From: Promethearchaeota archaeon
GTDB lineage: Archaea > Asgardarchaeota > Lokiarchaeia > Sigyniarchaeales > SOKP01
Length of the DNA stretch: 32,489 nt
Direction: 5' to 3'
Assembly (NCBI GenBank): GCA_019058015.1
Contig: JAHLWH010000230.1
Span: forward strand, 1-32,489
Under the pieces are notes generated by a model. The model saw nothing but the letters and a program-made list of their open reading frames with translations, ran no database searches and was not told the origin of the DNA. The position numbers and the translations under genes were made by a program. Shown here piece by piece: positions 2,661-22,702 of the stretch. The first letter of the stretch is position 1. Each line of letters begins with the position of its first letter.

Positions 2661-2804
2661 AATATTATCAAAAAGATGAAATATTAAAAAAACAATATAT
2701 CTCAAATAAACAAATATTAAAATTAAGATAAAATTTTTTGTATTGGTAAAGAATATATTGAATTTTTAACATCTTTATTTTATTTTTTTTTATCTTTTTT
2801 TTTT

Positions 2805-3437: not shown

Positions 3438-6400
3438 TTAATTTTTTAAATATGCCTCAATCATCGCATTTATTTGTTTAAAACTAAAATGCTTAATAAT
3501 AATTGCCGAATTAGGGCATTGAACACCACAGGTACCACATCCTTTGCATAACGCAGAATTAACATTGGATTTTTTTAAACGAAGTGTATAATCTTCAAAT
3601 GTTTTTTCAACCTCAATTAATTCTATTGCGTTATATGGACAAACATCAGCACATTTCCCGCAGCCGATACAATAATCTTCTATTACTTCAGCAACAAGAC
3701 CAGAAGTTTTCATTTCTTTAGCACCTAAAATTCTGATGGCTCTTCCAGCTGCACCATTTGCTTGAGCTATTGATTCTTGAATATTCTTAGGCCAATGAGC
3801 ACAACCACATAAAAATACTCCATCTGTTGCAAAATCAATTGGTCTTAGTTTAACGTGAGCTTCTAGAAAAAAACCGCTTTGATCTTGCGGAACTTTCAGC
3901 ATTTTTGATAATTCTTTAAAATTTTCAGGTGCAATCATAGGTGTAGCTAAAATTATAAGATCGCTATAAAATTCTACATCTCCTTTTAAATTGTGTTCGA
4001 ATAGGGTAATTTTATAATTAAATTTTCTATTTTGAGTTTTTGAAATTATAGGAAGTTTATCCAATGAATATCTTAAGAATAAAGCGTTTTTTCTTGAATC
4101 CCTATAAAATTCTTCATTCCCTTTTTTGGACATTTGAAGATCTCGATAAATTAAAATTAATGCCAAATCAGGTTTTAATTTTTTTAGGATATTAATATTC
4201 TTTAATGCATTTGTACAACATATATTAGAACAATATGTTATACCCTTTTTTTGTCTGGAGTTCACACATAAAATAAAGGTAATACTTTTAATATTATCTA
4301 GCCATTCTATATTTTCTTTCCTTAATTTTTGCTCTAATTCAAGTTGTGTAATAACATTTTTTTCTTTTTTGTAATTGTATATTGTTTCCGGTATCAACTC
4401 TTTCGATCCAGTTGCAACAATTATTATTCCAACTTTTATATTATTAACTTTATTTCCTTTAGTAGTTATTATAACATCATAATTTCCAATATATCCCCTA
4501 ATTTCCGTGATATTTGAATTTAAATAAATATTAATGTTTGAATGTGATTTTACTTTATTTACAAAAGGTTCTAAAAATTCTGAGGCTTTTTGATATCCTG
4601 GGAAAATTTGATATAAATTATTTAAATTTCCACCAAGTTGAGATTCCTTTTCTACAAGATGGGTTGTAAACCCTTGTTTTGCAATATTTAATGTGGCGCT
4701 TAAACCAGAGATGCCACCACCGATTATTAATGCCTCTGAAGTAATTGGTAATTTTGATTCTTTTTGTGGTTTTAATAATCTCGATTTTGCAACAGCCATT
4801 TCTATGAGGTCTTTGGCTTTCTTAGTACCATCCACTTTTTGTTCCATATGTACCCAAGAACATTGATCTCGAATATTAACCATTTCAAAAAGATATTTAT
4901 TCAAACCCGCTTCTTCACATGTTTCTTGAAATAATTTTTCATGAGTTCTAGGCGTACACGACGCAACAATAAATCTATTTAAATCATATTCAGCAATCAA
5001 TTCCTTAATACTAGTTTGGGAATCACTAGAACATGAATATAAATTATCTACTGTAATATTCACATTGGGTAATGTTTTGATATATTCTACAACCTGGGGA
5101 ACATCTACATATTTTCCAATATTTATTCCACAATGGCAAATCATAACACCTATGCAAGGTTCATCTTCTAAGTTTATCTTTTTTTCAGGTACAGATACTA
5201 CCTTTTCTTTTAACAGAGTATTTCTCACTGGATATAGTAATGTTGAAACCTTATTTGCTACTCCACTTGCATCAGCAACTGTTTCAGGGATATCTAATGG
5301 TCCTTGACAAAAACCACATAGAAAAATTCCCTCTCGTACAGATGATAATTTATCGTATAATGTCTTTTCCTTAAAAAATTTATATTTATCAATATTTATT
5401 CCTAATATTTTGGCAACTTTCTCAGAATCCTCAGATGGAACCAATGGTGTTGCCAAGATTACTAAATTTGCCCTTAAATCGTTAAACTTTCCATCATTGA
5501 GATCTTCATAATGTATAATTAAATCTTTGGTTTCAGGATCTTCTACTATTTTGCTAATTTTTGAATTAAAATATTTGACCCCATACTCATCTTGTGCTCT
5601 TTGAGTATATTCATAAAAATTTTTTCCATATGCCCTCAAATCATGCCTAAAAATATAACATTCTGAAGAATTCGAATGTTCTTTAGTAATTATTGCTTCC
5701 TTTGCTATATACATACAACAGACACTAGAACAATAAGGAATTCCAATATGAAAATCTCTAGAACCAGCACATTGTATAAAAGCAATTTTTTGGGGTTCCT
5801 TTTCATCTGATAATCTTAAAACGTGCCCCTCGAATGGACCAGAAGCACATAAAATCCTTTCATACTCTAAAGAGGTAATAACATTTTCATATTTATAACC
5901 CCAATTATCTGGAAGTTTAGAAGCTAACATATCAAAACCAATAGCAACTATAATTGCCCCAACTTCTATTTGGACTTCTTCTGGTTTCTGCTCAAAATTA
6001 ATCGCTTGTGCCTCACAGATTCTTTCACAAACTTTACATACTCCTTTATTTAAAAATAAACACATGTCTGAGTCAATTAGATAGACTGGAGGAACAGCTT
6101 GTGGAAATGGGATATAAATAGATTTTCTTTTTCCCAAGTTCATATCAAAAATATTTGGAGCCTCAATCTTAGGACATTTCGAGGCACAATCGCCACAACC
6201 CGTACATTTATTCTCATCCACATATCTTGGTTTTTTTAAAATTTTTATATAAAAATGACCTACATGACCTGATACTTCAATGACTTCTGAATAAGTCATT
6301 AATTCAATATTTGGATTTCTAAAAATCTCAACCATTTTTGGAGCAAGGATACATAAAGAACAATCATTAGTAGGAAATGTTTTGTCTAATTGAGCCATAC

Positions 6401-6563
6401 GCCCTCCAATTGAAGGAGTCTTTTCTACTAGAAATACTTTAAATCCCATTTCAGTTAAATCTAAGGAGGCTTGAATTCCTGCAATACCTCCACCAATTAC
6501 TAAGACTGCTCCGATTAAATCATCAGTTTGACTTTTTTGTGATGATTTTTTACTTTTACTCAT
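3438..6563 (-). CDS. hdrA: Large (1041 aa) heterodisulfide reductase subunit A-like flavoprotein with two HdrA FAD modules (cysteine form)
   Basis: GGGIAGIQASLDL, GGRMAQLDKTFPTNDCSLCILAPKM, inserted ferredoxin, QCAGSRD..YCSSVCCM; then an internal CHCGINI / SCTPRTHE / IRDQCSW domain, a second GGGISG module and a C-terminal 2x[4Fe-4S] domain. Confidence 0.93.
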   Translation of the reverse strand: MSKSKKSSQKSQTDDLIGAVLVIGGGIAGIQASLDLTEMGFKVFLVEKTPSIGGRMAQLDKTFPTNDCSLCILAPKMVEIFRNPNIELMTYSEVIEVSGHVGHFYIKILKKPRYVDENKCTGCGDCASKCPKIEAPNIFDMNLGKRKSIYIPFPQAVPPVYLIDSDMCLFLNKGVCKVCERICEAQAINFEQKPEEVQIEVGAIIVAIGFDMLASKLPDNWGYKYENVITSLEYERILCASGPFEGHVLRLSDEKEPQKIAFIQCAGSRDFHIGIPYCSSVCCMYIAKEAIITKEHSNSSECYIFRHDLRAYGKNFYEYTQRAQDEYGVKYFNSKISKIVEDPETKDLIIHYEDLNDGKFNDLRANLVILATPLVPSEDSEKVAKILGINIDKYKFFKEKTLYDKLSSVREGIFLCGFCQGPLDIPETVADASGVANKVSTLLYPVRNTLLKEKVVSVPEKKINLEDEPCIGVMICHCGINIGKYVDVPQVVEYIKTLPNVNITVDNLYSCSSDSQTSIKELIAEYDLNRFIVASCTPRTHEKLFQETCEEAGLNKYLFEMVNIRDQCSWVHMEQKVDGTKKAKDLIEMAVAKSRLLKPQKESKLPITSEALIIGGGISGLSATLNIAKQGFTTHLVEKESQLGGNLNNLYQIFPGYQKASEFLEPFVNKVKSHSNINIYLNSNITEIRGYIGNYDVIITTKGNKVNNIKVGIIIVATGSKELIPETIYNYKKEKNVITQLELEQKLRKENIEWLDNIKSITFILCVNSRQKKGITYCSNICCTNALKNINILKKLKPDLALILIYRDLQMSKKGNEEFYRDSRKNALFLRYSLDKLPIISKTQNRKFNYKITLFEHNLKGDVEFYSDLIILATPMIAPENFKELSKMLKVPQDQSGFFLEAHVKLRPIDFATDGVFLCGCAHWPKNIQESIAQANGAAGRAIRILGAKEMKTSGLVAEVIEDYCIGCGKCADVCPYNAIELIEVEKTFEDYTLRLKKSNVNSALCKGCGTCGVQCPNSAIIIKHFSFKQINAMIEAYLKN

Positions 6564-6574
6564 TTTGTAGATAC

Positions 6575-7750
6575 CTACTTATTTTGTTTTGAGGGTATAA
6601 CTTCAATAACGTTTTCCAAGAGATTTGATAAATCTATTACATTAATATCTTGGACAGTTTCTGTATCATTTTGAAGGCATCTAAAGTGAATTTCACATTT
6701 TGGACAAGTAGTAATTAAATTATCAGCAACATCTTTAGCTTCCAACATTCTATGATATCGAAGTGCTTTTGCTTGTTCAGAGCAATTTAGCCAACAACTT
6801 ACTCCGCAACATAAAGAATTGGATTTATTGTGAACCATTTCATTATATACATAACCTACTTTTTCCAATTCTTTAAAAATATATCTTATTTTTTCATATA
6901 TATTAAAAGATTTTGGTAAAAATCTACTTAATCTACATGGATCATGATAAGTTAATTTGAGTATTTTTGTGTTTTTCTTTTCCTTTTTAAATTTAATTTT
7001 ATTTTCCTTCAATTTCTCATAAAGATATTCAACAAGGTGTTTAACCTCAATATTAAAATTCTCAAACATCGAAGGATAATCAATTTTAAGAGTCCTATAC
7101 CCTTCTGCACAAGAAGTTACTATTAAAGAAGCTCCACTTCTTTCAAAAGCTTTTATATTATGGATTGCTAATTTTTTAAAAGCTTCGATTTTACCTTGCC
7201 ACAATAAATCATGACCACAACATTTTTCATCTTTCAATAAAACTATTGGTTCATTTTCAATTTTGCATAATATTTTTAAAGTATCTACAGCATTATTCAT
7301 TGACTCATCGAATTCATAATAAAAAAGGGGAGCACATCCTACAAAATATAAGATATTTCCCTCTTCTGATACCTTACACCCAGAAGGAACCCACTCAAAA
7401 GTCTTTTCCGGAGTAATATTTTCTTTACTCATAATTTCCGAAAGAAGTGTATAGAATCCCTTATGAGCAATTTTAGGCATAATTCCGGCATCCAACATTT
7501 TATTTCTTGCATCACGTACTATTTCAGCAAAATTAACTTCATGTGGACATTTTTCAAGGCAAGAATTGCAAGTTAAGCAATCCCAAAGCATTCCACTTTC
7601 AACAATTCGATCTTCAAAACCTTCAATGATCAGTTGTATTATCCTACTAGGAGTGTATTTTTGGATTCTTCCCATTTGGCAAATGCCACTACACATAGCA
7701 CATTGATAGCAATTATTAAGATATTCTCTTAATTTTCCTTTTATAACCAT
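6575..7750 (-). CDS. HdrD-like (HdrC-HdrB type) Fe-S / CCG-domain oxidoreductase
   Basis: CYQCAMCSGIC and WDCLTCNSCLEKCP ferredoxin motifs; two CCG domains (KCCGH..VTSCAEG; YHDPCRL..LCCG..TTCPKC). Confidence 0.88.
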   Translation of the reverse strand: MVIKGKLREYLNNCYQCAMCSGICQMGRIQKYTPSRIIQLIIEGFEDRIVESGMLWDCLTCNSCLEKCPHEVNFAEIVRDARNKMLDAGIMPKIAHKGFYTLLSEIMSKENITPEKTFEWVPSGCKVSEEGNILYFVGCAPLFYYEFDESMNNAVDTLKILCKIENEPIVLLKDEKCCGHDLLWQGKIEAFKKLAIHNIKAFERSGASLIVTSCAEGYRTLKIDYPSMFENFNIEVKHLVEYLYEKLKENKIKFKKEKKNTKILKLTYHDPCRLSRFLPKSFNIYEKIRYIFKELEKVGYVYNEMVHNKSNSLCCGVSCWLNCSEQAKALRYHRMLEAKDVADNLITTCPKCEIHFRCLQNDTETVQDINVIDLSNLLENVIEVIPSKQNK

Positions 7751-7775: not shown

Positions 7776-8888
7776 TTAAAATTTAACTCCTAAATTTTTT
7801 TGCGATAAATTATATCTATCTTCTTTATATTTTGAAAACTGAATTAATTTTTCTAACATTTTTTCTCTTTTTCCTTCTAAATCCTCTAAAACTTTTATAT
7901 ATCCCTCATTTATAGCGGATTTAACAATATTTGTTCCAAGTTTGGTTCTAGGTATAGTTGTTGTATATTTTTCAGGTGATGATAACCCACCAAATGAAAT
8001 ATCTGCATAAATATTAGTAAAATCATTACATGCATTACAAGCGGAACGTATATAATCTGATAATTCACTAAACGATATATGCTGAATAATTTCACTTCCT
8101 TTTAATTTTATTAACATATCTTCCTTAATATTTAATTTCTCAATCTCTTCAATTTTTAAATTAAATTGAGTTTCAAATTTCTCTTTTTTATCTTTACCCA
8201 TTGTAAAATTTCCATAACAAAATAATCCAAGAAGATATTTTATATTTTGAGAGGGGGTAACCCCCATTTCATGCATACATCTTATCGTATAAATTTGACA
8301 AGGCGTTCCTATAACAGCTAACTTTTTAAATTTATATCTATTTAATGCCATAATTGTAGGACTATAAGTACTAAAATTAGCAATTTCTGTTACTTGTGAA
8401 GAAATATCAAAATGAGAACCTGCAGCTAAAATTAAATCATTTTTAGATTTTGCAATCATTGAATCTCTCGAAAATGGTCCCAACTTTTTTGAAACGATTG
8501 CTCCATCAATTAAATTATGTTCCAATAAATACAATAATATAGCAGATACTACTCCACCATCAGTTCCATTTTTTAAGAGATCTTTATCTAATGCTTGAAA
8601 TGAATATATCTCTTTATAATTACCAAGTGGTTTGATATAATTATATTGATTATTTAAATTATTTTCTAATACTTTAGTTTGTGGACAAATATGATAACAT
8701 ATTCCGCACTCTAAGCATTCTTTTTCATTTATAAATTGTGGTGGCAAATCTGGTTTAATAAAATCAATAATCCTATAATCAGCAGAACTACAAAAACTTA
8801 CACACCCACCACATAATTGACAAATGCCTTTATCATGAACTTCTTTAATTAAATCTTTAAAATTTTTTATTCGTTTATCTTGACTCAT
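7776..8888 (-). CDS. Coenzyme F420 hydrogenase/dehydrogenase beta subunit (FrhB/FdhB family)
   Basis: CQLCGGCVSFC and CLECGICYHICP; DGGVVSA, VIGTPCQ, LGLFC, ACNACNDFT..ADISFGG. Confidence 0.9.
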   Translation of the reverse strand: MSQDKRIKNFKDLIKEVHDKGICQLCGGCVSFCSSADYRIIDFIKPDLPPQFINEKECLECGICYHICPQTKVLENNLNNQYNYIKPLGNYKEIYSFQALDKDLLKNGTDGGVVSAILLYLLEHNLIDGAIVSKKLGPFSRDSMIAKSKNDLILAAGSHFDISSQVTEIANFSTYSPTIMALNRYKFKKLAVIGTPCQIYTIRCMHEMGVTPSQNIKYLLGLFCYGNFTMGKDKKEKFETQFNLKIEEIEKLNIKEDMLIKLKGSEIIQHISFSELSDYIRSACNACNDFTNIYADISFGGLSSPEKYTTTIPRTKLGTNIVKSAINEGYIKVLEDLEGKREKMLEKLIQFSKYKEDRYNLSQKNLGVKF

Positions 8889-8905: not shown

Positions 8906-10387
8906 TTATTTTTTTACATTGAATTCAATTTTTTTGCATTTTGAATTTTTAATTCTTGAAATTTTCTTAACCAAACCGAATCCAGGTTTTACTTCAGCTA
9001 AATCCTTAACTTCTACTAAATTGCCATTTATCAATTTATTAAATAAATCATTTCCAACTTTTGTTCTTGTAATAACTGAAGACCAACCTGCACTTGAGCC
9101 TATTGAACCTACTGAAATATCTGCAAATTCGGATGTTAAATCACTACAATAATGGCATACATCTCTTGCTAAGGAAGTTAATTCTTTTAATGGAACTTTG
9201 GCTTCTTCTCCATTTTTATCTTTGACAATAAATTTTCCTCCACTAATGTCCATTTTTAAAATGTTCTCTAATTTCTTATTAAAAATTTCAGTGCTTATAT
9301 TGATAACATTATCATAGCTGAATGATTCCATGCAGAATAAACCAATAGTATATTTAATATTATTAAAAATAGATGTTCCAATTGGATAAATACTTCCTTT
9401 TTTGAGTGCTAACATCATACATGGAGTTCCAACGACTGCAATTTTATCAAATTTTTGTGCTTCATTCAAAATTGTTAAACTTGGAGAATTAGCATATTTT
9501 GTACCAGCGGTTTTATAAAGACCATCAACATTTTCAATTATAATAGGTTTTGGTCTCCAAATATCTTCAGAATGGGTTACTGCTATCGCAGCATCAATTT
9601 CTTTTTCTTTCAGTAAATAATATAATAATGTTGTTACTATACCACCATCTTGGCATACTTCTTTAATTTCATCACTTTTTGTACTTGCAGTATATGCATT
9701 TATATAATAATTACTTGCGGCACCATCCTTCAAATTAGGATTTAATTTATTTAAAACTGTAAAAATATGCTCAGATGGAAATGACCTCGGGCAAACAGAA
9801 AAACAAAGTCCGCATTTAATGCAAGTCTCAGAATCAATTTTAAGATCATCTGCAAATACTGTTATTGAGCCAACTGGGCATATTGATGAACAATAACCGC
9901 AATTACAACAAAAATTATTCTCAAATACTAAAGAAACTGGCTCAAAATAATTTTCTCGAAAAGAATTATCAAGGGATTTGGCTTGATATCGAACAATTTC
10001 AATCTTTATTTCTTTATCTATCAAATTTCCCTCTTTATTTTTTACTTTTTTGATTTCTGTCTTTATTTCAATTAATTTTTCAACATAACCTTGTTGGGTT
10101 AAATATTCAACTGTTGGTACTAATTTTTTCTTATCATATTCCACTTTCTCCACTATTTCTTCAAGAGTAAGCGGAGGAAGCCCCATTAATTTTTTTAATA
10201 TTAAATTTCTTTCTGTCTCAGCATCGAGAAGTGAATCTAAAATAAAATTAAAATCTTCCTCACTAAATCTTCCAAATTTTAAAATATCATCTTTTCCTTC
10301 ATATAACGCACGAATTTGAAAATTACTTATAGCGTTATATGTAGATTCCATTAAATTTTTTAGATCAATATTTTCTATAAGATCCAC
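8906..10387 (-). CDS. FrhB/FdhB family protein with an N-terminal winged-helix-like extension
   Basis: Two CxxCxxCxxxCP motifs, QDGGIVT, VGTPCM, IGLFCMESF, CHYCSDLTSEFADISVGSIGS. The first ~150 aa contain LTLEEIVEKVEYDKKKLVPTVEYLTQQGYV. GTG start preceded by AGGAAG. Confidence 0.88.
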   Translation of the reverse strand: MDLIENIDLKNLMESTYNAISNFQIRALYEGKDDILKFGRFSEEDFNFILDSLLDAETERNLILKKLMGLPPLTLEEIVEKVEYDKKKLVPTVEYLTQQGYVEKLIEIKTEIKKVKNKEGNLIDKEIKIEIVRYQAKSLDNSFRENYFEPVSLVFENNFCCNCGYCSSICPVGSITVFADDLKIDSETCIKCGLCFSVCPRSFPSEHIFTVLNKLNPNLKDGAASNYYINAYTASTKSDEIKEVCQDGGIVTTLLYYLLKEKEIDAAIAVTHSEDIWRPKPIIIENVDGLYKTAGTKYANSPSLTILNEAQKFDKIAVVGTPCMMLALKKGSIYPIGTSIFNNIKYTIGLFCMESFSYDNVINISTEIFNKKLENILKMDISGGKFIVKDKNGEEAKVPLKELTSLARDVCHYCSDLTSEFADISVGSIGSSAGWSSVITRTKVGNDLFNKLINGNLVEVKDLAEVKPGFGLVKKISRIKNSKCKKIEFNVKK

Positions 10388-10410: not shown

Positions 10411-10489
10411 CCCCCATATCCCTTGCAGGGATGTCCCAATAAAATTTCTTAATTTTAAGCTTTCATTTTAAAGATCATTCAAATGGGGG
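10411..10489 (-). promoter_or_regulatory. Eukaryote-like SECIS element (type II-like)
   Basis: mRNA reads CCCCCAU UUGA AUGA UCUUUAAAAU GAAAG CUUAA AA UUAAG AA AUUUUAUUGG GAC AUCCCU GCA AGGGAU AUGGGGG. This gives helix I CCCCCAU/AUGGGGG, an AUGA/GA core, a 10-position helix II (two U.U mismatches), AAA 11 nt after the core, and a CUUAA/UUAAG ministem. It lies directly 3' of two UGA-containing genes. Confidence 0.82.
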
Positions 10490-10946
10490 TTTTGGTTATT
10501 AATTTTTTATCTACTTCTTTTATTTCTGCCTTAATAACTGCTTGATCTGTTTTTAATGGATTCAATCCCAATTTTTCTACTTTATTTACCATATCTTCGA
10601 CCGATTTTACAAATTTTACAGCTTCAGCTCCAGAGCAGTTATACATGTTTACTCGGTCTCCTCCCAGACCACGCCTATCTAGAATTCTCTTAACAAATTT
10701 GACATGCTTTGCGGCAATAAAGTTTCCAGTTTTAAATTCACATTGATTTTCTTGTCATCCTACAACCATTACTCCATCGGCACCATTATTAATTGCATAA
10801 ATTAGGTGTTTTATATCGACTCTACCTGTACATCGCAGACGAATAATTTTTACATTGGGAGTATATTTCAATCTTGAAACACCAGCTAAATCTGCAGCAC
10901 TATAACCTCATTTATTACAAGCAAACGTAATGATATTCATTTTCAT
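10479..10946 (-). CDS. vhuD: Selenocysteine-containing MvhD/VhuD (155 aa; U13, U64), absent from the ORF track
   Basis: Manual translation: MKMNIITFACNK-UGA-GYSAADLAGVSRLKYTPNVKIIRLRCTGRVD...GADGVMVVG-UGA-QENQCEFKTGN...LGLNPLK...TKTPI-stop. The UGAs at 10908-10910 and 10755-10757 align with Cys in the paralog at 2981..3418. AGGTGA ribosome-binding motif lies upstream. Confidence 0.92.
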
Positions 10947-10969
10947 ATATCTCACCTGAATTTTTCGGT

Positions 10970-12913
10970 TTATACATTTACTTCCATTATTAATGCTAGA
11001 ACTTGATTAAATATTTGATCATCTGTATAATATCTAATTTGTATTGCTTGAGTTGGACAACATGTTGCACAGATTCCACACCCGTCACAATTGATCTCAT
11101 CGACCTCAGCAATTTTTCCTTCAGGTACAATAATAGTATTCTTTGGACAAATTTTTTCGCAGCGATAACAAGAAATACAATTTTTTTCATTAACAATCGC
11201 ACATATTAATTCAAGCTCCGCTTCTCCCTTGGATGTCAATTCTGCAACCTTACTTGCGGCTGCTCTCGCTTGAGAAACCGAGTATGATATATTTTTTGGT
11301 CCTTGCGCAAACCCACAAATATAAATCCCTAGATATTTAGTTTCCTGAGGGCTTAAGCCAAAATGATGTTCAGTCAGGTATCCATTTGTATCATAATCAA
11401 TTCCAAGAACATCTGCTATTTGTCTCGTTCCTTTAGATGGTAATACTGCAGTTGATAAAACAACTAAGTCTGCATCAATTTTTATTATCTCATCTGTTAA
11501 TGAAGAATATACTCTTACCTTGAGATTTTTGGTTTCAGAATCCTCTATTAGTTCTGGAACTTTACCCCGAATAAAGTCAATACCTTTATCACGAGTTCTC
11601 ATATAGTATTCTTCAAAGTTCTTTTCAAATGCTCTTATATCAATGTAGCAGATGGTTATATGGCAATCAGGGATTTCTTCTTTAAGTAATTTAGCATTTT
11701 TTAAAGCGATCATGCAACACACACCAGAACAATACGCATTTTCTGTATCTCTCGAGCCAACACATTGAATAAATAATATTTCTTTAGGTGTTTTTCCATC
11801 TGATGGTCTTTTTACATGGCCCATTGTTGGACCATTTGGTGCTAATATCCTTTCAAGCTGGATTTCGTTTATAACATTTTGATATTCTCCATATCCATAT
11901 TCTGTAGGATTATATAAGTCCCAACCCGTTGCAACTATTATTGTACCCACTTCAATTTCGATACATTCAGGTTCTTGACTCAAATCAATTGCATGTGGCT
12001 CGCAAGCATCTACACAAGCATATCATTCAACGCAAGATTCTTTTTCAAGATCATAAACAAAAGGAATAGCTTGCCCAAAAGATATATCGATACATTTTCT
12101 TGAACCTAAATTTTCTTGCCAATAATTTGGTATGTAAATTGGACATACTGGCGTACAATCTCCACAACCATTGCACAAATCTTCTATAACATATCTAGGT
12201 TTTTTCTTTATCGTAACTTCATAATTTCCAACATATCCTTCAACTTTATCAACTTCACTACAACTAATAATTTCAATATTCTCATTTCGATTAGCTTCAA
12301 GCATTTTTGGACCAAGAATTCATATAGAACAATCATCAGTTGGAAATGTTCGATCTAACTGAGCCATTCTGCCCCCAATTGTAGTTTTACTCTCTATTAC
12401 ATACACCCTTATTCCTTGATTTGCCAGATCTAATGCCGCATTTAATCCAGCGATTCCTCCACCAACTACTAAAGTAGATTTTTTTATAGGGATAATTTTT
12501 GTCGGTACTATTTCCAATCTTTTAGCCCTTTCATAACCTGCTCTGCTTAAAATCTTTGCTTTATCGGTTGCTGAAACTTCGTCTTCAGTAATCCAAGAAC
12601 ATTGTTCTCTAATATTTACCATTTGAAAATAAAATTTACTAAGTCCTGCCCGTTCTAAAGACTCTCTATAAATCGGTTCATGAGTTCTAGGAGTTCAAGC
12701 TGCAACTACAACCCGATTAATCTTTTTTTCTTTGATATCGTCCATTATTAATTTCTGTCCTTGTTCAGTACATAAAAAACTAAAGATGCGACTTGTTTCA
12801 ACATTATCAAATTGTTTCATATACTCTGCAACTTCAGAACAATCAACTTTCGCAGAAATATTCAAGCCTCATTGACATGCATAATATCCAATGCGTAAAA
12901 TTTCTTTACTCAA
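10970..12913 (-). CDS. hdrA: Selenocysteine-containing heterodisulfide reductase subunit A (647 aa; U15, U73, U198, U297)
   Basis: ORF-track pieces 12320..12622, 12023..12304 and 10970..11983 are one frame. It extends to TTG at 12913 and is interrupted only by TGA at 12869-71 (ACQ-U-GLNI), 12695-97 (VAA-U-TPRTHE), 12320-22 (DDCSI-U-ILGPKM) and 12023-25 (SCVE-U-YACVDAC). Ends at TAA. Confidence 0.93.
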
Positions 12914-13320: not shown

Positions 13321-13560
13321 AAATTTAATAACAAGAACAAGATTTGCAAAAGACAGACAATAGAACTATTAAGTAAATATTTCAATTCAAGTAATAGAGC
13401 AAACATTAAAAGAGATGCGGTTAAACATTTGGGAGAAATTGGTGATGAAAAAATTCTTAAGCATCTTTTATAATGTGTAGGAAATTATCATTGAAAAGTT
13501 CGGCTCTTAACTACTAAAATGATAAAAAAATTGAAGCAAGATCGACAAAATAATCAATAA
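13321..13560 (+). pseudogene. Degraded HEAT-repeat (PBS lyase-like) protein remnant
   Basis: IELLSKYFNSSNRANIKRDAVKHLGEIGDEKILKHLL*CVGNYH*KVRLLTTKMIKKL fits the HEAT consensus but has an in-frame TAA (13471) and TGA (13492) and no start codon. Confidence 0.6.
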
Positions 13561-13691: not shown

Positions 13692-15185
13692 GTGAGTGAA
13701 GAAGTAAATAAAGTAAGATCTGAATCTAAATATGAACATTCTTTTGAATATATAAAAAAGAAATTAGAAGGGAAAAAAGATTCATTTGGAAAATTAGTAA
13801 AGGAAGTTATAAGAACAGGTGTTTGCACTCATTGTGGCACTTGTGCAGCGATTTGCAGTGCTCTTGAATGGGATCCAATTTTAGAAGAACCACGATTAGT
13901 CGGTCAATGTTCTGGGTGTGGAATTTGTTATAATCAATGTCCGAGGACTATTACTAATCCCGAACAACTTGTTGGTCATTTTAAAACAGGTTATGTTACG
14001 AAAAGTGGAATTCCTGAAGTTATTAGTGGTCAGGACGGAGGAACCGTTACGAGCTTATTATGTTATTTATTTGATGAAAATTTGATTGATGGAGCAGTTG
14101 TTACTAAAAAAAATCCAAATAAACCATGGGTTCCGTTGCCTCAACTTATTACTACTAAAGAAGAAGCTATCGAAGCTTCTGGTTCTATTTATAGCCATTC
14201 ACAAACAGTTGATTCTTTAATGGACGGGATTAGAAATGACATGGGCTCTATCGCATTTGTAGGAACTCCTTGCAACATAGATGCTGTGTTTAAAATGGAA
14301 AGTAGTCCACTTGGAATGTTAAAATATTTTATGAGAGCACATGTTTTTAAAATTGGATTATTTTGTATGGATTCATTTTCACATGAAGCATTATTACCAT
14401 TTTTTGAGAAGGAGGGAATTAATTTAGCGGAAATAACAAAAATGGATATCAATAAAGGAAGATTTTATCTTTATAAAGGAGATACAGAAGTAAAATCCTA
14501 TAAAATAAAGGAATTAGATAAATTTAAATCATCAAGTTGCAATTTTTGCACAGATTTAGCTGCTGAAAATGCTGATATCTCGGTGGGTTCTGTTGGAAGT
14601 GGACCGATGAAAAACACAGTTTTAGCACGATCAGGTATAGGAGTAGAAATTATGGAGGACGCTATAAAAAAGGGATATTTTCTTTCTGAACCATTTTCAG
14701 TGGAAAATTTAAATTCTGTCTTGTTCCTAGCAAGATTAAAGAAAGTATCTCAATATACGGTTCTTAAAAGGAAGGTTTTTATAGTTAAAGATATAGATAG
14801 AGAAGAACCATTTAGACCAAGACCAGAATTGAAAGAGCAAGCTGAGGTCGCAACGCCGTTTGGAACAAGAAAAATATTAAGGATTACTCAAAAACTGAAT
14901 GAAAGTCAAACGGCTACTACAATTACAATAGAAAATGTTATTGGATATCTTCTTGAAAATTTACAAATTAGGGTTGCTGTTGTGGAAGAACTATTCGAAA
15001 AACGACCTTGGAGTACAACAATAAAAGAAATTTTTCCTTTTGAATCTATTCAGATTAGTTATCCATTAGAAATTAAAGATGGAAAACATGTTCTTGGAGA
15101 AATAATTATAGATATTTCTGATTCACATAGAAAACTCTTTTTTAAGAAATACTCTCTGAAACCAAAAGAAAAAAAATCAAAATAA
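13692..15185 (+). CDS. FrhB/FdhB family F420-interacting Fe-S flavoprotein with a C-terminal ~100 aa beta-sandwich-like extension
   Basis: CTHCGTCAAIC, CSGCGICYNQCP, QDGGTVT, FVGTPCN, IGLFCMDSF, CNFCTDLAAENADISVGSVGS. Extra C-terminal domain from ~14870. Confidence 0.88.
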   Translation: MSEEVNKVRSESKYEHSFEYIKKKLEGKKDSFGKLVKEVIRTGVCTHCGTCAAICSALEWDPILEEPRLVGQCSGCGICYNQCPRTITNPEQLVGHFKTGYVTKSGIPEVISGQDGGTVTSLLCYLFDENLIDGAVVTKKNPNKPWVPLPQLITTKEEAIEASGSIYSHSQTVDSLMDGIRNDMGSIAFVGTPCNIDAVFKMESSPLGMLKYFMRAHVFKIGLFCMDSFSHEALLPFFEKEGINLAEITKMDINKGRFYLYKGDTEVKSYKIKELDKFKSSSCNFCTDLAAENADISVGSVGSGPMKNTVLARSGIGVEIMEDAIKKGYFLSEPFSVENLNSVLFLARLKKVSQYTVLKRKVFIVKDIDREEPFRPRPELKEQAEVATPFGTRKILRITQKLNESQTATTITIENVIGYLLENLQIRVAVVEELFEKRPWSTTIKEIFPFESIQISYPLEIKDGKHVLGEIIIDISDSHRKLFFKKYSLKPKEKKSK

Positions 15186-15263
15186 TAGATAAAACAATTT
15201 TTCAACAAAATTTTTATAAAATCAAATTAAAAATTTAAATAAGAATAAACGAGATATAAAAAA

Positions 15264-16175
15264 ATGAAAATTAGTTTAATAGGATTGTCTGGTTGTGGCA
15301 AAACCTCTTTATATTCGGTAATATTCGCGGAAAAAACACCTGAAGAAACAAAGAGATTATCTCCAACGATACTCTATGAAACAAGAAGGCATCCTTTTTT
15401 AGGATTAGAAATATCAATTTTTGACTTTGGAGGCCAAGACCAATACATCAAAGAATATCTTGATAAGCCGAAAATATTCATGGGTACGGATGTTTTGATT
15501 CCCGTGGTTGATTTGCACGATCCAAATTCTTTTGATAAATCAAAAAAGTATTTTGAAGATGTTATAAAACTTTATAAAGAGAATTATCAGAAACCAAAAA
15601 TTTGTATGTTTTATCATAAATATGATACTGAAGATTATCAAAAGGAACTTTTAGATACAAATATAATAAAAGCTCGAGAGATTTTTTCGGACATATTCAA
15701 AGATTATAAGCCACAAACTTTTCTAACGAGTATCTATGATCAACAAAATTTAACAAAGATCTTCAGAGATATATTAATGGGATCTTATTCAGAATTAAAG
15801 GGTCATATAGAAAAAGCGGAAAAGCACTTACAGGAGATAAATGCGAGAATTATTATTTCCGATATATCAGGAAATGTATTAGTTCATAATGTTCAAGGAG
15901 TTTCAAGCGGACTATCATTAAGGGCAGATTTAAGAGATTTTATTAGTTCCTGTAATGTAATTAGAGAGAATGTTTTTTTATCTGATTCTGCAGAGTTTAA
16001 AGGAAATTCAGAAGAAGGTAAAGAACTTCAACTGTATATTTTTAAATATATATTAGCTGTTTTAATAATGAAATCGGAAGGGGAATTGGATCCTGAATCT
16101 TCTGAGAAGATTCGTGTATTGTTAAAAGATATGAAATTATTTTCTGACATAATTGTTTCTATTCATTCTGAATAA
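15264..16175 (+). CDS. Rag/Gtr1-like small GTPase with a C-terminal roadblock-like domain
   Basis: G1 GLSGCGKTS followed by SVIF, G2 LSPT, G3 FDFGGQ, G4 HKYD and G5 TSIYD; HKxD and TSIxD are typical of the Rag family. C-terminal IIISDISGNVLV is roadblock-like. Confidence 0.85.
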   Translation: MKISLIGLSGCGKTSLYSVIFAEKTPEETKRLSPTILYETRRHPFLGLEISIFDFGGQDQYIKEYLDKPKIFMGTDVLIPVVDLHDPNSFDKSKKYFEDVIKLYKENYQKPKICMFYHKYDTEDYQKELLDTNIIKAREIFSDIFKDYKPQTFLTSIYDQQNLTKIFRDILMGSYSELKGHIEKAEKHLQEINARIIISDISGNVLVHNVQGVSSGLSLRADLRDFISSCNVIRENVFLSDSAEFKGNSEEGKELQLYIFKYILAVLIMKSEGELDPESSEKIRVLLKDMKLFSDIIVSIHSE

Positions 16176-16202
16176 TATTTTTAAAACGATCAAACGATAA
16201 AA

Positions 16203-17399
16203 ATGAAATTAAGTCTTGATAATGATGATAGTATCATTTTGGGAGATTATCTTAATGTAATTACTAAAACTACATTTGAAGAAACAACTGAGATCTTGTG
16301 GGGAGGTTTAAAATTAATTTCTAAAAACCCATGTAAAAGAGACTTAATTATAACCAAATCTGAAATATTCAATCAAGGTACTTTTGAGGCTGGAGAATAT
16401 ATAAGAAAAAGATCACAACTTATTAATCCCAACGTAGTTCCAACAATTCCAGCAAGAAATATTCACTACTTAGTTAAAATGACTTTAAGAATTAAAAGTC
16501 CTCTTAATTCTCAAAAAGAAATAGAAATTTTTAAAGAAAATCCCATTAAAATTTTTCCAAAAGAGAATATATATCATAATAGAATTCCCACTCCAATTAA
16601 ATTAATTATGTCTGGGATAGATCTTGAAATTTCTAAAGATATTTTTAAACCAGGCGAGGCTATTAAGATTGATTATAAAACAAGCAATTTAGCATTATTT
16701 CAAATAAGATTAAAACAAAAGGCTAATTTAATATGTATTTGTGAACCTTTTGGTGAACAATGTGGAAGTACTGAGGAATTACCACCAGTGATTGCTGGTG
16801 GAGCAAAAACATCCAAAACAGATCACGGTTTTCTATTGATAAAAATTCCAAATCACGCTGAACCAAGTCATGAATATCTTTGGGAACCTCAAGAAAAAGA
16901 ACAGTGGGGAGTTAAATTTGGGGATTATTCTAAATGGTTTCTGGAGATAATAGGAAATAGGAAAAGAGAAGTCGGGGGAGATATAATCTCTTTTGAAATC
17001 CCAATTACTATTAAACCTCAAAAACAACAAAATATAATCGAAACTGGTTTATTTAGAGAAAGAGAAGAGGGTTTAGAATTATTTGAAGCCCCTCCTGCAA
17101 TAAAAAAAGGTATGAATATAATTTCTATTGATACTGATAAAGATACTTCTATAAGTACATTTATTTATAAATTGCGAATAAAAAATAATCTCAAAGATAT
17201 TCTTAATGGTGTTACAATAGAAAACTCAGGTATTCAACGAGGTCTATTCGAGACCTATAAGCATATGACAGGTTTTAATTCATGGCTACCAGGAGAAGAA
17301 AAAATAATTGAATATAAAACAAGGCAAGAAATCGATACTTTAATTTCTACTATCAAAACAAATTCTCAAAAACAAACTAGAATTCAAACAATTCTATGA
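16203..17399 (+). CDS. Arrestin/Vps26/SpoOM-fold protein with a shared C-terminal beta-sandwich-like domain
   Basis: Arrestin-N-like FEAGEY..INPNVVPTI...IHYLVKMTL; arrestin-C-like SKDIFKPGEAIKIDY..IKIPNHAEPS..FEIPITI; third domain from ~17110. Confidence 0.62.
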   Translation: MKLSLDNDDSIILGDYLNVITKTTFEETTEILWGGLKLISKNPCKRDLIITKSEIFNQGTFEAGEYIRKRSQLINPNVVPTIPARNIHYLVKMTLRIKSPLNSQKEIEIFKENPIKIFPKENIYHNRIPTPIKLIMSGIDLEISKDIFKPGEAIKIDYKTSNLALFQIRLKQKANLICICEPFGEQCGSTEELPPVIAGGAKTSKTDHGFLLIKIPNHAEPSHEYLWEPQEKEQWGVKFGDYSKWFLEIIGNRKREVGGDIISFEIPITIKPQKQQNIIETGLFREREEGLELFEAPPAIKKGMNIISIDTDKDTSISTFIYKLRIKNNLKDILNGVTIENSGIQRGLFETYKHMTGFNSWLPGEEKIIEYKTRQEIDTLISTIKTNSQKQTRIQTIL

Positions 17400-17452: not shown

Positions 17453-17551
17453 TCAAATAATATTATCAAACAGATTTTGACAAACTACTTGTGGCGTTAG
17501 TCCGAACGCCTCTATCCCATCCACTACAAGAGTATATGGGAATTCTTTTCC
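17453..17551 (-). mobile_element. Remnant 3' end of a tnpB gene (IS200/IS605/IS607 family)
   Basis: Reads GKEFPYTLVVDGIEAFGLTPQVVCQNLFDNII*, similar to the TnpB tail KKVVPNAVSADGIEGVGLHP at 32257..32340, and carries a 6-bp hairpin in the same register. Confidence 0.6.
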
Positions 17552-17973
17552 ACAATTGAGGGATACCCTCGGAGCTGATCCGATGCAAAATTAATTCTTT
17601 CTTGTAATAAACAAGCAAAATAAGCATTTAAATTTAAAAAGACAACAGATTTTCTATAAAGTGAAAAACTCTAAAGAATTCAATGATATTATCAAATGAT
17701 ATTAATCTTTATGGAATTTATTATTTTTGGTAACTATATAATTTTCAAAATATTTTTTGAATATCTTAATTTTTTAAAAGAAATATTTTATTTTAAATGC
17801 AAATTTTGTTTATATTCTTATGAAATCTTTATGTTATTTGATTTAGAATCATCTAAGATTTAATTCTAAGTAAGAATCAAGTGAAATATTTATGTTAAAA
17901 AGGCATAATATATTATATATAAAAGAAAAAAATAATTCAAATTCCTTAAGAAAAAATAGATTGATACATTAAG

Positions 17974-19207: not shown

Positions 19208-20023
19208 TTGTCAAAAAAAGAGATGCAAGATTTTTTTTTTGATGATCCAGTTTCTGGTAAATTAAAAAAGAATCTTGGAGATACATCTGTAGAATATTTC
19301 TATTTTGATGAAAATTTTATCATTGAGACTAAAAATAAACAAGTTGCAAATGCCGCGTTATTAAAAGGTAAATCTCAATTAACTTTAAAAGATAGAAAAT
19401 ATGAATTAAAACAGTTTGATATGTTCTTCCTACCTCCGAATACTTCTGTTCAAATATTTCCCAAAGAAAAAGATTTAATAAATAATAAAATTTGTATCGT
19501 AAAAACGGCTATTATTAGTACAGATATAAATCCAGCTTGTAAATTTGATTTACAAAGATTTGAATTTAATAACTTTTTACCTCGAGGTGAATTGAGCGAC
19601 AATAAAAAAATGGGAACATTTAGAACCGTTTGGACTGCATTTAAAAATGGTTATTTTATGTCAGGATTAACCGATATTCCATCCATATCTTTAAGGCAAG
19701 GGGTTGTAACTAGCGTTAATATTGAAAAATCTACAAATGGAGATTTAGAAATTTATCCTCATATACACTATGGTTTTCCAGAAGTTTATATTTTTTGCAT
19801 ACCTGATAAAACTACTGCTGTAACACAGTATTTAATAAATAATAGTGGTGAATCCATTGTTAGGGAGCGATATAATGGTGAGGGATTATTATTTCCGGGA
19901 CATCTTGGGCATATGAATTTTGCTAAACCCAATTATAAAAATCTTAAATATTGTATTTATATGTGGATAATTGGAACCTATGGAAAAGTGGCAAATATTG
20001 AACCTATTACACTAAAAATTTAA
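19208..20023 (+). CDS. Cupin-fold protein (KduI/IolB-like), function unknown
   Basis: LKQFDMFFLPPN, and a metal-binding-like PHIH..PEVYIF..H arrangement typical of double-stranded beta-helix proteins. Confidence 0.5.
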   Translation: MSKKEMQDFFFDDPVSGKLKKNLGDTSVEYFYFDENFIIETKNKQVANAALLKGKSQLTLKDRKYELKQFDMFFLPPNTSVQIFPKEKDLINNKICIVKTAIISTDINPACKFDLQRFEFNNFLPRGELSDNKKMGTFRTVWTAFKNGYFMSGLTDIPSISLRQGVVTSVNIEKSTNGDLEIYPHIHYGFPEVYIFCIPDKTTAVTQYLINNSGESIVRERYNGEGLLFPGHLGHMNFAKPNYKNLKYCIYMWIIGTYGKVANIEPITLKI

Positions 20024-20031
20024 ATTCATTT

Positions 20032-20439
20032 TTACTTTACGAAAAACATTATATTATTATTAGATTTCCAAGATACTATACCCTTCAAAATTAAAAGCTC
20101 TATTTCTCTTTTAATTGTATCAATATCTAAATTGATATTTTTATCTTTTAAATATTCAAAAATTTCTTTATAGGATGCTTTTTCCTTTATTTTTGAGAGC
20201 GATAATAAATTCTGATTCATATTTTTACCTCGAACAATGGATTGTGTATTAGAATAAAGCATGAAAAAATTATGAGCAAGGGCATCATCAAAAACATCAT
20301 CATCATAATTTTTCATTTTTTCAAGTAAATTTAATGCTTGTTCAAACTTCTCTTCCTGGATTAATTTTTCAGCTATGGATAATTCCTCTTTAAAATTGTT
20401 TGTATTTACTTTTTCATTTTTTGAATTCATATCATTCAC
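20032..20439 (-). CDS. Hypothetical protein: helical hairpin plus C-terminal winged helix (PCI-like)
   Basis: AEKLIQEEKFEQALNLLEK is TPR-like; SYKEIFEYL..IDTIKREIELLILKGIVSW is wHTH/PCI-like. Confidence 0.45.
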   Translation of the reverse strand: MNDMNSKNEKVNTNNFKEELSIAEKLIQEEKFEQALNLLEKMKNYDDDVFDDALAHNFFMLYSNTQSIVRGKNMNQNLLSLSKIKEKASYKEIFEYLKDKNINLDIDTIKREIELLILKGIVSWKSNNNIMFFVK

Positions 20440-20629: not shown

Positions 20630-22702
20630 TTGATTGATTATAAACCACAAATATTTTTGGAAAACATTGATGTTTTGATTAGCATTGTTAATCCAAATAA
20701 TAAATTTGAATTTGAATTTGTTAACGAACATATTTATTTAGATTTATTGGGATATTTAAGCAAAGAATTAATTGGAAAATCATTTTTGGATTTATTACAT
20801 CGTGATGATTTGCTTATTGTAAAAAAAATATTAAAAAGAAAAACTGAATCTAAAGAATATTTAAACGAAATAAGACTTAAACATAAAAATAATAAATATA
20901 TTTGGTTTGAAATTAAAAAAAAAAGATTTAAAGATGATAGCAATAAAAAAAAAATATTAATTATTTTAAAAAATATTTCAAGCCGTAAGAAACTAGAGGA
21001 AAAGTTAAGAGAAAATGAGGATAGATTTAAAAAATTAACTATAACTCTGCCAGAAATTCGTTTTTGGAAACTATTTAACCCAAAAAAATATGAAGTGGCA
21101 TTACAAAAATCATATGAGATGCTTCATACTGTCATGGAAAGCATTCCTCAATATATATTTTGGAAAGATATTAATTCTACATATTTAGGATGTAATCACA
21201 GCTATACTAAACTTATAGGCATAGAATATCCTGAGGAAATAATAGGTAAAACAGATAATGATTTTTTAACTAATAAAGAAAAGATAAAGCATCTCAAAGA
21301 ACATGAAACCAAGGTTATGATAACAAAAAAACCTGAATTTCATATAGTTGAATCATGGGTATTAAAAAAGGGCACCATAGTATGGTTGGATATAAATAGA
21401 ATACCTCTCTTCGATTCGGAAGAAAATGTAGCAGGAATTCTTGTCACTCTTGAAGATATTACTGAAAAAAAAATCTATGAGGAACTAATATTTGAATTAA
21501 ATAATAATTTTTTAAATTTTACAACTGATGTCAAAAAGAATTTAAAATTATTATTAGATTCTTGTTTTAAATTAATAAACGGAGATATTATTTTATATAT
21601 TCATAAGAGTTCAATTAATGAAAAAGAACAGTATCAAATAATCACATCCGATAATCAGGTATTTAATTACAATTCTGAATATTTTTTGGAGAATATTTTT
21701 GTTAATCAATTATTTTTAGCAGAACATGATTTACCTCAAACCATTTTTGATTTAAATGAAACTAAATATGCTAAGACCGATCAATTTATCATTGATAATA
21801 AGATAAAAGCATGTTATGGAAAATTGATTCAATCTCAAAATGAATTTAACAATGCTTTATGTGTCTTTTATAAACATAACCCAATTATAACTAACCGAGA
21901 CAGTATGGTTTTATATTTAATTGGAGATGCGATTGAAATTGAACAAAAACGCTGGCAAATGCAACAAGATTTAGAAGCACAAAATATAATGTTAAATGAA
22001 ATTAATAAAGTAAAAACAGAGTTGTTATCTAGAACTTCACATGAATTAAAGACCCCTCTTGTTTCAATAAAAGGATTTACTGAACTTTTGTTAGCACGTT
22101 ATAAATCTGAATTAGATGACAATGTTATTTCGATTTTAAAAGAAATTATGAAAGGGAGTCAACGTCTTGAAAATATTATTAATATGCTTTTACAAAGTTC
22201 AAAATTGGATAAAGATAAAATAGAATTAAAAATTTCTAAGGGAGATTTGACATCCTTGATTAATGAGTGTATAAAAGAGTTGCAAGGATTAGCAGAATTA
22301 AGGAAACAATCAATATCATTTAAAATTCAGGATTCTTTAAATACTGATTTCGATAAAGAAATGATTCATGATGTAATATCAAATTTATTATCAAATGCTA
22401 TTAAATATACTCCTCCAGAGGGAAATATTATTATTCAATCTAAAATAAAAGATGACTTCTACATAATTTCCGTAAAAGATAATGGAATTGGATTCACTGA
22501 AAAAGAAAAAAACCAATTATTTAAACATTTTGGCAAAATTGAAAGATATGGTAAAGGATGGGATGTAAATATAGAGGGTACTGGGCTTGGATTATATATT
22601 TCAAAAAAAATTGTAGAATTGCACGGTGGAAAGATTTGGGTTGAATCGGAGGGAAGAAATAAAGGGAGTACTTTTTATTTCTCCATTCCAAGAATAAATT
22701 AA
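20630..22702 (+). CDS. PAS-PAS sensor histidine kinase (cytoplasmic)
   Basis: Two PAS/PAC domains (LLGYLSKELIGKSFLDLLH; IFWKDINSTYLGCN); H-box SHELKTPL; N-box NLLSNAIKYT; G1 DNGIG; G2 GTGLGL. Confidence 0.93.
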   Translation: MIDYKPQIFLENIDVLISIVNPNNKFEFEFVNEHIYLDLLGYLSKELIGKSFLDLLHRDDLLIVKKILKRKTESKEYLNEIRLKHKNNKYIWFEIKKKRFKDDSNKKKILIILKNISSRKKLEEKLRENEDRFKKLTITLPEIRFWKLFNPKKYEVALQKSYEMLHTVMESIPQYIFWKDINSTYLGCNHSYTKLIGIEYPEEIIGKTDNDFLTNKEKIKHLKEHETKVMITKKPEFHIVESWVLKKGTIVWLDINRIPLFDSEENVAGILVTLEDITEKKIYEELIFELNNNFLNFTTDVKKNLKLLLDSCFKLINGDIILYIHKSSINEKEQYQIITSDNQVFNYNSEYFLENIFVNQLFLAEHDLPQTIFDLNETKYAKTDQFIIDNKIKACYGKLIQSQNEFNNALCVFYKHNPIITNRDSMVLYLIGDAIEIEQKRWQMQQDLEAQNIMLNEINKVKTELLSRTSHELKTPLVSIKGFTELLLARYKSELDDNVISILKEIMKGSQRLENIINMLLQSSKLDKDKIELKISKGDLTSLINECIKELQGLAELRKQSISFKIQDSLNTDFDKEMIHDVISNLLSNAIKYTPPEGNIIIQSKIKDDFYIISVKDNGIGFTEKEKNQLFKHFGKIERYGKGWDVNIEGTGLGLYISKKIVELHGGKIWVESEGRNKGSTFYFSIPRIN

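Follow-up and report, generated by a model that had tools for sequence, protein, structure and literature searches.

GTPases of the Rag/Gtr family have a C-terminal roadblock domain for dimerisation and form heterodimers of two Rag paralogues, and an HKxD-type G4 motif marks Rag specificity. Longin-type GTPase-activating proteins (GAPs) for Rag, such as FLCN and Nprl2, act on the GTPase through a catalytic arginine finger. Small GTPases are clustered with regulators of the roadblock/longin superfamily and with sensor components in the MglA-MglB system and in the actinobacterial conservon CvnA-D. Here we describe a trio of genes in a stretch of 32,489 nucleotides from a Promethearchaeota archaeon (Asgardarchaeota, class Lokiarchaeia; contig JAHLWH010000230.1, positions 1 to 32,489; hereafter the window). 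The trio encodes an FrhB-like iron-sulfur flavoprotein (FrhB_X), a Rag/Gtr-type small GTPase (Rag) and an arrestin-fold protein (ArrL), and a gene for a longin protein (p356) lies elsewhere in the window. Judged from sequence comparisons, the linkage of FrhB_X and Rag is a conserved Asgard gene module and no chance neighbourhood; ArrL, the longin protein and proteins with CBS domains are regarded as probable further members. FrhB_X, ArrL and p356 share what is, by homology, a rare C-terminal domain, which we call betaS.

The module Rag resembles eukaryotic Rag/Gtr proteins in its Gtr1/RagA-type G domain, its HKxD-type G4 motif and its C-terminal extension, but the module has one Rag gene in place of the RagA/C heterodimer pair, no partner like Ragulator/EGO or TOR was seen in it, and the partners of Rag are an iron-sulfur flavoenzyme and an arrestin-fold protein. 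As with GATOR1 (Nprl2/3) and FLCN-FNIP, there is a genomically linked longin protein, which has entries of those complexes among its best structural matches; it also carries betaS. ArrL has the two-lobed beta-sandwich (residues 1 to about 280) of the arrestin clan (Vps26, beta-arrestins, the alpha-arrestins TXNIP and ARRDC3, Rgp1 and Spo0M), and Rgp1, which was among its Foldseek matches, is a member of the guanine nucleotide exchange factor (GEF) complex of Rab6. ArrL differs from the clan in its third domain, betaS, and in its linkage to a Rag-type GTPase and a redox enzyme. FrhB_X shares with FpoF/FqoF and FrhB both FrhB_FdhB domains, an N-terminal pair of [4Fe-4S] motifs and invariant cysteine ligands, but it falls below all NCBIfam cut-offs, has a unique betaS domain and a constant Rag neighbour, and has no hydrogenase or Fpo partner genes beside it. 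The grouping of a small GTPase with a longin-type regulator and sensor-type genes can be likened to that of MglA-MglB and CvnA-D, although the GTPase here is of Rag type and its partners are FrhB, arrestin-fold and CBS proteins instead of a histidine kinase.

The Rag-like GTPases and the longin, roadblock and arrestin-domain proteins of Asgard archaea are known eukaryotic signature proteins, according to excerpts of four reports (PMC10933270; bioRxiv 10.1101/2020.10.19.343400; 10.1101/2021.04.02.438162; 10.1101/2025.11.06.686947). Excerpts of Tran et al. 2024 (PMC10933270) describe the role of Asgard Rab and Rag proteins as unknown and state that, in the cultured strain, genes for small GTPases do not as a rule share operons with roadblock, longin or TRAPPC3 genes, so that the partners of Asgard Rag proteins are hard to predict. 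A different conserved operon, with a LAMTOR1-like protein, a Rab-like GTPase and a DENN protein, is described in excerpts of Liu et al. (bioRxiv 10.1101/2020.10.19.343400). In the literature searched, neither an FrhB-Rag-arrestin cluster nor the betaS domain was mentioned; supplementary tables, which were outside the search, could list the cluster. The parts are of known kinds, and their combination and the shared docking-type domain appear new. For one group of Rag orthologues, the cluster puts forward an enzyme, an arrestin-fold protein, a longin protein and CBS proteins as candidate partners. It is a testable candidate for archaeal Rag GTPase function, and binding assays could exploit betaS by removing or exchanging it. 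Should the members act jointly, proteins of eukaryotic type (GTPase, longin and arrestin) would be tied to core anaerobic energy metabolism and not to membranes, and this would bear on the roles of these parts before eukaryotes arose.

The trio lies on the forward strand, with FrhB_X at 13692-15185 (497 aa, GTG start; from the list of open reading frames (ORFs) and Pfam), Rag at 15264-16175 (303 aa; Pfam Gtr1_RagA) and ArrL, a protein of arrestin/Vps26/Spo0M fold, at 16203-17399 (398 aa; AlphaFold2 (AF2) model and structure searches). The intergenic gaps are 78 nt between FrhB_X and Rag and 27 nt between Rag and ArrL. A first-pass annotation of the window had given exactly these coordinates and gaps and had described the trio as divergent from an Hdr operon, and the Hdr genes are indeed on the minus strand. 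Its proposal that the trio forms a three-gene operon would fit the tight string found in this genus and in distant families, but not most loci of the window's family (f1), where ArrL stands apart. It had named synteny in relatives as its own test, and we found gene order kept at the family, order, class and phylum levels. The earlier observation is confirmed, and the interpretation of the trio as a redox- or energy-sensing module is partly supported and here extended: synteny, co-absence and the longin and CBS parts fit it, but the invariant ligands of FrhB_X are the pattern of a working enzyme.

At the level of the order, we searched 41 related genomes and found a FrhB_X orthologue (E ≤1e-60) in 25, a Rag orthologue (best E ≤1e-60, read from the table of matches) in 27, ArrL in 24 and the longin protein in 27; family f2 had no match to any of them (0/11 in each search). 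For f1 we took a census of species-level ArrL loci, using the best 80 of 104 relatives. FrhB_X and Rag are adjacent in all 36 of the 36 f1 loci that show both genes, and 70-170 nt separate them. Of the ten loci that have Rag and no FrhB_X, nine were too short upstream to show it, and the tenth (L138) had room yet lacked the gene. In 46 of the 80 loci, and in 39 of the 53 that have at least 8 kb of upstream sequence, Rag precedes ArrL on the same strand. These two genes are 0.3-3 kb apart in 13 of the 46 loci and 3-9 kb apart in 28.

To follow the cluster beyond the order, we used a betaS profile, which matched 179 of 400 genomes of the phylum, including 129 of 134 in f1, all those sampled in f3-f7, and every genome of f9 (3/3), f16 (22/22), f20 (5/5) and f21 (6/6). 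In the same profile search betaS was absent from f2 (0/14), f13 (0/31), f15 (0/12), f18 (0/12), f19 (0/19) and several further families. Eleven loci outside f1 were mapped by BLAST, and seven of them, some in other classes, have the tight co-directional string of FrhB_X, Rag and ArrL: L039 (f3; Rag in two ORFs), L040-L042 (f4), L154 (f21), L155 (f20) and L159 (f5). The other four show FrhB_X followed by Rag and no ArrL (L068, f4), Rag followed by ArrL and convergent on FrhB_X (L156, f32), FrhB_X convergent on Rag and no ArrL (L157, f16), and FrhB_X by itself (L158, f9). Outside the mapped loci, Rag was assigned from betaS spacing: an FrhB-type and an ArrL-type betaS lie 2.15-2.27 kb apart on one strand, which leaves room for a gene the size of Rag. 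The same distance was seen in f20 (5/5), f21 (6/6), f5 (3/3, with G163 counted through L159) and f7 (1/2), and in f6 in neither of two genomes.

The f16 family is without ArrL. In 19 of its 22 genomes, the FrhB-type gene is accompanied by one or two longin-type betaS genes. A Rag orthologue is also present in 19 of the 22; in 10 it is convergent with FrhB_X and within about 100 nt of it, in 8 it is 5-7 kb off on the same strand, and in 1 it is on a different contig. In all, 18 of these 19 genomes have the two genes within about 7 kb of each other. The longin gene lies within the cluster in f4, f5, f16, f20 (4/5), f21 and f32, and genes with CBS domains adjoin the longin gene or FrhB_X in L154, L157 and L159. 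The longin and CBS parts are joined in one protein, P0184, in which four CBS domains are fused to a longin-betaS protein. In f6 and f7, reading frames of 632-645 aa have a betaS in the middle of the protein and fit this fusion type by size only. The flanks vary, with a HEAT-repeat protein in f1, a C25 peptidase in f20 and f21, V4R proteins in f21, and also CBS and acyl-CoA dehydrogenase (ACAD) genes. In L154 (1569-6864, minus strand), four tandem paralogues of about 423-434 aa directly follow ArrL, and the one that was scanned (5593-6864) has a V4R domain of the TRAPPC3/Bet3 superfamily.

The members of the core are also missing together. Orthologues of FrhB_X, Rag and ArrL were not found in G005 (91% complete) and G023 (99%), both of which keep the longin gene. 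Similarly, in G181 (92%), G200 (97%) and G205 (88%) betaS is confined to a gene of the longin type, and a search at E ≤1e-30 found no Rag orthologue; the absence of FrhB_X and ArrL from these three is read from the betaS search and not from full-length searches. These five genomes span three genera (g2, g11 and g6), other members of which have FrhB_X, Rag and ArrL. In two genomes of genus g4 a Rag orthologue is present, and FrhB_X and ArrL were not found. The Rag orthologue of g4 is broken into two frames at about residue 52 (L066/G007 and L067/G019), and that of G237:C159 at about residue 125; the split Rag of g4, where its two partners were not found, may mean decay.

The betaS domain was recognised by comparing profiles of the three proteins. 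The C terminus of FrhB_X aligned with domain 3 of ArrL in hhalign with a Prob of 91% (E 1e-6, 74 columns), compared to a Prob below 1% for five control pairs involving ArrL lobes 1 and 2 and the Rag C-terminal domain. When a hidden Markov model of the FrhB_X domain was run against the 6315 ORFs of at least 60 aa in the genome, one further protein was found, p356 (residues 267-353, E 4.4e-6), and a joint alignment of 33 sequences has a common N...FE...PxEE signature. Among 1,835,955,588 cluster representatives, the betaS profile found 125 matches at E ≤1e-3 and 53 at E ≤1e-10, mostly in three length classes, FrhB-fused, ArrL-type and longin-type; the remainder consisted of fragments and, as a weak tail, long proteins with Ig repeats of the CARDB/DUF11/ASH type. 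Pfam analysis of 27 betaS representatives identified 7 as FrhB-fused. Rag is the only core member without betaS. We also considered that the C-terminal extension of FrhB_X might be a roadblock partner of the Rag C-terminal domain, and rejected this candidate, for which the hhalign Prob was 0.1%; the extension is a beta-sandwich, and its homologue is domain 3 of ArrL.

FrhB_X was correctly named as frhB-like in the first-pass annotation, since both FrhB_FdhB_N (1.8e-20, 73.3 bits, cut-off 22) and FrhB_FdhB_C (1.2e-38, 132.8 bits, cut-off 23.3) exceed their Pfam cut-offs. Two 4Fe-4S motifs (Pfam; residues ~38-90) precede the FrhB/FdhB core (residues ~94-351), and a charged linker leads to the conserved C-terminal betaS domain of about 95 residues (residues ~398-493; nt 14883-15170, plus strand), which was assigned by homology to ArrL domain 3 and p356. 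All 12 iron-sulfur ligand cysteines are invariant in 17 orthologues, 8 of them in the ferredoxin-like N terminus and 4 in the core (C194, C225, C283 and C286). Because all cofactor ligands are kept, FrhB_X looks like a competent electron-transfer protein, and the idea that it is a sensor instead of a catalyst would be pure conjecture. The NCBIfam models for frhB (179.5 against a cut-off of 331.5), PRK09325 (210.5 against 269) and FpoF (126.6 against 475; aligned over residues 36-334) match below their curated cut-offs, and we thus place FrhB_X as an FpoF-like family member and not as an equivalog. CofD and CofE are above cut-offs in the window's genome, which makes the use of F420 plausible. 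A complex prediction with full-length FrhB_X and Rag, run without controls, scored 0.31 against a mark of 0.32 and counts for neither side.

For the GTPase, the assignment to the Rag/Gtr family stood, with 95.9 bits for Gtr1_RagA (PF04670; 3.2e-27, cut-off 22) compared to 39.3 for Arf and 34.4 for Ras; the best PDB matches are 8yl2, RagA and Gtr1. The motifs GLSGCGKTS, T35, DFGGQ, HKYD (H118-K119-x-D121) and TSIY (T155-S156) show little or no variation among 18 sequences, and the aligned position of the HKxD-type G4 is HKMD in RagA. The roadblock fold that had been claimed for the C-terminal ~120 aa has no Pfam match, and the language-model look-alikes of this domain, which are eukaryotic Gtr1/RagA fragments, score only 0.84 and are a weak lead; for these reasons the roadblock fold stays conjectural. 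The module has a single Rag gene; a paralogue with 55% identity to it lies outside the module and is confined to this genus. The paralogue is found at G000:C188:6579-7487, at a contig end in the window's genome, and in L064 and L065, where it adjoins an integrase-like gene and a gene that is Orc1/Cdc6-like by eye. No FrhB, arrestin or longin neighbours were found at the paralogue loci, which therefore do not provide an independent replicate of the module.

ArrL had been called arrestin-like, and this was right at the level of fold. The AF2 model, built from 38 relatives, has a predicted local distance difference test score (pLDDT) of 83 and three beta-sandwich domains: two arrestin lobes (residues 1 to ~275/280), a disordered linker (275-296) and betaS (residues ~300-398; nt 17100-17396, plus strand; hhalign). 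Foldseek matched the model to VPS26C, Rgp1, Vps26, beta-arrestins, ARRD-6 and TXNIP with E values of 2.6e-9 to 1e-7. Similar results were obtained with VIA (Z 12.4-14.7 overall, with up to 253 residues aligned), in which Vps26 reached Z 13.4-13.9 over 238-242 residues and beta-arrestin 1 reached Z 13, while the N lobe alone matched bacterial Spo0M with Z 14.7 and the N lobe of ARRDC3 with Z 12.5. At the sequence level, the window protein has no Pfam family, with Arrestin_N and Arrestin_C below the gathering threshold, and a search of the PDB gave no match (best E 1.4). A weak Arrestin_C match is present in 28 of the 38 relatives (E ≤1, best 6.4e-6), the window protein excepted, and two database relatives carry a precomputed PF02752. 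Alpha-arrestins (TXNIP/ARRDC) have C-terminal PPxY motifs and redox-active cysteines that bind thioredoxin; no PPxY was seen by eye in the ArrL sequence, and no systematic test was made. Downstream of ArrL are p271 (19208-20023, plus strand, 271 aa), which has no Pfam family, and p135 (20032-20439, minus strand, 135 aa), which has a weak winged-helix-like match (FokI_D3). Both stay beside ArrL in much of f1, with p271 less than 300 nt downstream in 26 of 80 loci.

The longin protein p356 is encoded at 1635-2705 (minus strand, probable start 2660; 356 aa), about 11 kb from the trio in the window, and within the cluster in other families. Its AF2 model (pLDDT 76) has an N-terminal longin domain, then a helical segment and then the C-terminal betaS. 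It has no Pfam family, and its Foldseek matches were mostly generic Ig-like matches to the C-terminal domain; the longin fold emerged only in a wide VIA search with residues 17-190, in which 6nzd_H (FLCN-FNIP2, Z 10.4), 8fw5_B (GATOR1, 10.3), Sec22 (10.0) and the Loki longin 8yqg_B (9.6) were among the best matches, tied within Z 1. A loop of the form S-x-R-x-K-x-R-x-G is invariant in 23 sequences (S90, R92, K94, R96 and G98); we do not equate this basic loop with the arginine of FLCN or Nprl2.

Because the linkage outlasts rearrangement and changing flanks, and because joint loss, a rare shared domain and a gene fusion accompany it, we consider the cluster a probable functional unit, and functional coupling of FrhB_X and Rag is likely. 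How the parts would be coupled is a more tentative matter. In the mechanism that we favour, though at a probability a little below even, the three proteins would dock by way of betaS on an assembly centred on Rag, in which redox and adenylate state would be integrated. If betaS is such a docking module, it would gather three heads on an assembly organised by Rag, namely an electron-transfer enzyme (FrhB_X), an arrestin-type adaptor (ArrL) and a longin-type regulator. The longin protein, with its invariant basic loop, would act on the GTPase cycle as eukaryotic longin GAPs and GEFs do, and the CBS domains would signal adenylate state. FrhB_X would couple the assembly to the F420/ferredoxin electron pool of neighbouring Hdr-type complexes, and might either report that pool or be regulated through it, while ArrL would be the output or a scaffold. 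The most specific form of this proposal is an Asgard Rag energy- and redox-sensing complex, in which an F420/ferredoxin oxidoreductase of FpoF-like type, an adenylate sensor with CBS domains and a GAP-like longin regulator would meet on one Rag GTPase through betaS, with ArrL as output adaptor; taken as a whole this is speculative, and we think it rather unlikely. If it is true, there would be a prokaryotic system with the logic of eukaryotic nutrient sensing by Rag/GATOR/FLCN and AMPK-gamma, wired to anaerobic electron carriers.

Several observations weigh against the docking proposal, or against the linkage on which it is built. First, ArrL is loosely placed in f1: Rag is directly adjacent to it (<300 nt) in just 5 of 46 loci, and a divergent gene for a HAD hydrolase lies less than 350 nt upstream of it in 62 of 80. 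FrhB_X and Rag themselves are apart in three genomes, on different contigs in G012 and G024 and by 11 kb in G022, and the genomes compared are related and not independent samples, so that the counts overstate the number of evolutionary events. Second, the longin gene persists where FrhB_X, Rag and ArrL are gone and has paralogues, and thus it is not exclusive to the module. Third, CofH was not found in the window's genome (94% complete), and a roadblock domain in the Rag C terminus is unconfirmed, with no Pfam match in the last 123 aa of four orthologues. Fourth, a promoter-like motif is kept in the spacer between FrhB_X and Rag, and this pair may therefore be transcribed separately; among sequencing runs that cover the stretch, 20 DNA runs and no RNA run were listed. 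Finally, the contacts, the direction of signalling and all biochemical activities in the proposal are ones that we infer.

Within the spacer itself (15186-15263, plus strand, 78 nt), a TATA-like A/T element precedes the ATG of Rag by about 45 nt. Inspection of 30 FrhB_X-Rag spacers showed that many f1 genera (spacers of L076-L153) share an A/T-rich motif like GTTAAATGAAATAAATTATTATAAAA, placed about 25-50 nt ahead of the start codon of Rag; the TATA-like element of the window's genus differs from this motif. The conserved motif is a candidate archaeal promoter. A scan for sigma-70 promoters and terminators gave 25 sites compared to a shuffle mean of 30.6, with a model that is inapplicable to archaea.

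The alternative that survives best, although we still think it unlikely, is that the GTPase, the longin protein and the arrestin-fold protein are assembly, targeting or quality-control factors for FrhB_X. Rag would then set where or when FrhB_X docks, for example on an Hdr-type complex or at the membrane, and the enzyme would be regulated without any cell-wide sensing. FrhB_X does retain all of its cofactor ligands, as a working enzyme would, its link to Rag is the tightest in the cluster (36/36), and Hdr/Mvh/FrhB clusters lie beside the module in the window, L037, L068, L155, L156 and L159, and beside ArrL alone in L029, L032 and L043. An Hdr cluster is, however, within 9 kb of ArrL in just 9 of the 80 f1 loci, and CBS and longin partners suit signalling better than assembly. 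Moreover, the accessory GTPases of redox enzymes that we know of belong to the G3E/SIMIBI class of P-loop GTPases, unlike Rag, and are not Rag/Arf-like.

If Rag, ArrL and the longin protein instead formed a membrane-trafficking or cargo-adaptor system, FrhB_X would be a metabolic neighbour with a common Ig-like appendage and no functional tie to them. The titles of the structure matches lend this some weight, as arrestin, Vps26 and Rgp1 folds and longin domains serve eukaryotic trafficking, and the weak tail of the betaS profile search does reach generic CARDB/DUF11/ASH Ig repeats. Yet the most constant partner of Rag is FrhB_X and not ArrL, as seen in f1 and also in f16 and G033, both of which are without ArrL; FrhB_X is lost jointly with Rag and ArrL; and the 53 strong betaS matches fall mostly in the three module length classes, along with fragments and a few long repeat proteins. 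We therefore regard the trafficking explanation as improbable. The weakest explanation, genomic inertia, by which the neighbourhood is inherited gene order without common function, is very improbable: many of the compared genomes are related, and ArrL retains p271 and p135 across f1, so that some order is simply inherited, but the flanks (HEAT, C25 peptidase, CBS, V4R and ACAD) change between families while the core stays, the linkage outlasts rearrangement (convergent in f16 and f32, co-directional elsewhere), and domain sharing, fusion and joint loss would be left unexplained.

The divergent Hdr cluster of the window is read on the minus strand and begins with an HdrA-like gene (10970-12913), which encodes 647 aa by way of four in-frame TGA codons. 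Its start is at 12913, and not at 12622, once TGA is read as selenocysteine; otherwise the gene shows as three ORFs. Each of these TGA codons is at a position where the paralogous HdrA has cysteine. An MvhD/VhuD-like gene with two in-frame TGA codons follows (10455-10955), and relatives show the same ORF splitting. The rest of the cluster, assigned by Pfam, consists of FrhB_b (8906-10387), FrhB_a (7776-8888), an HdrB/C-like gene (6575-7750), a double HdrA (3438-6563) and MvhD (2981-3418), all on the same strand.

The G+C content of the window is low, about 0.20-0.35, and Rfam and tRNA scans of the window gave no match. A G+C-rich island (17480-17590), which likewise has no Rfam or tRNA match, lies within the A/T-rich spacer of 574 nt between ArrL and an acyl-CoA dehydrogenase gene. 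Just upstream of FrhB_X is the remnant of a HEAT-repeat gene (13324-13539, plus strand), in which N- and C-terminal pieces are joined and interrupted by in-frame stops; in tblastn the pieces matched the intact protein of the same genus with E values of 2e-12 and 5e-11. The intact gene (~511-540 aa, Pfam HEAT_2) precedes FrhB_X in L073, which is of the same genus, and in 20 of the 80 f1 loci. On the other side, 3 kb past the trio, is a gene for a PAS-PAS-HisKA-HATPase sensor histidine kinase (20630-22702, plus strand), the position of which is kept within the genus only.

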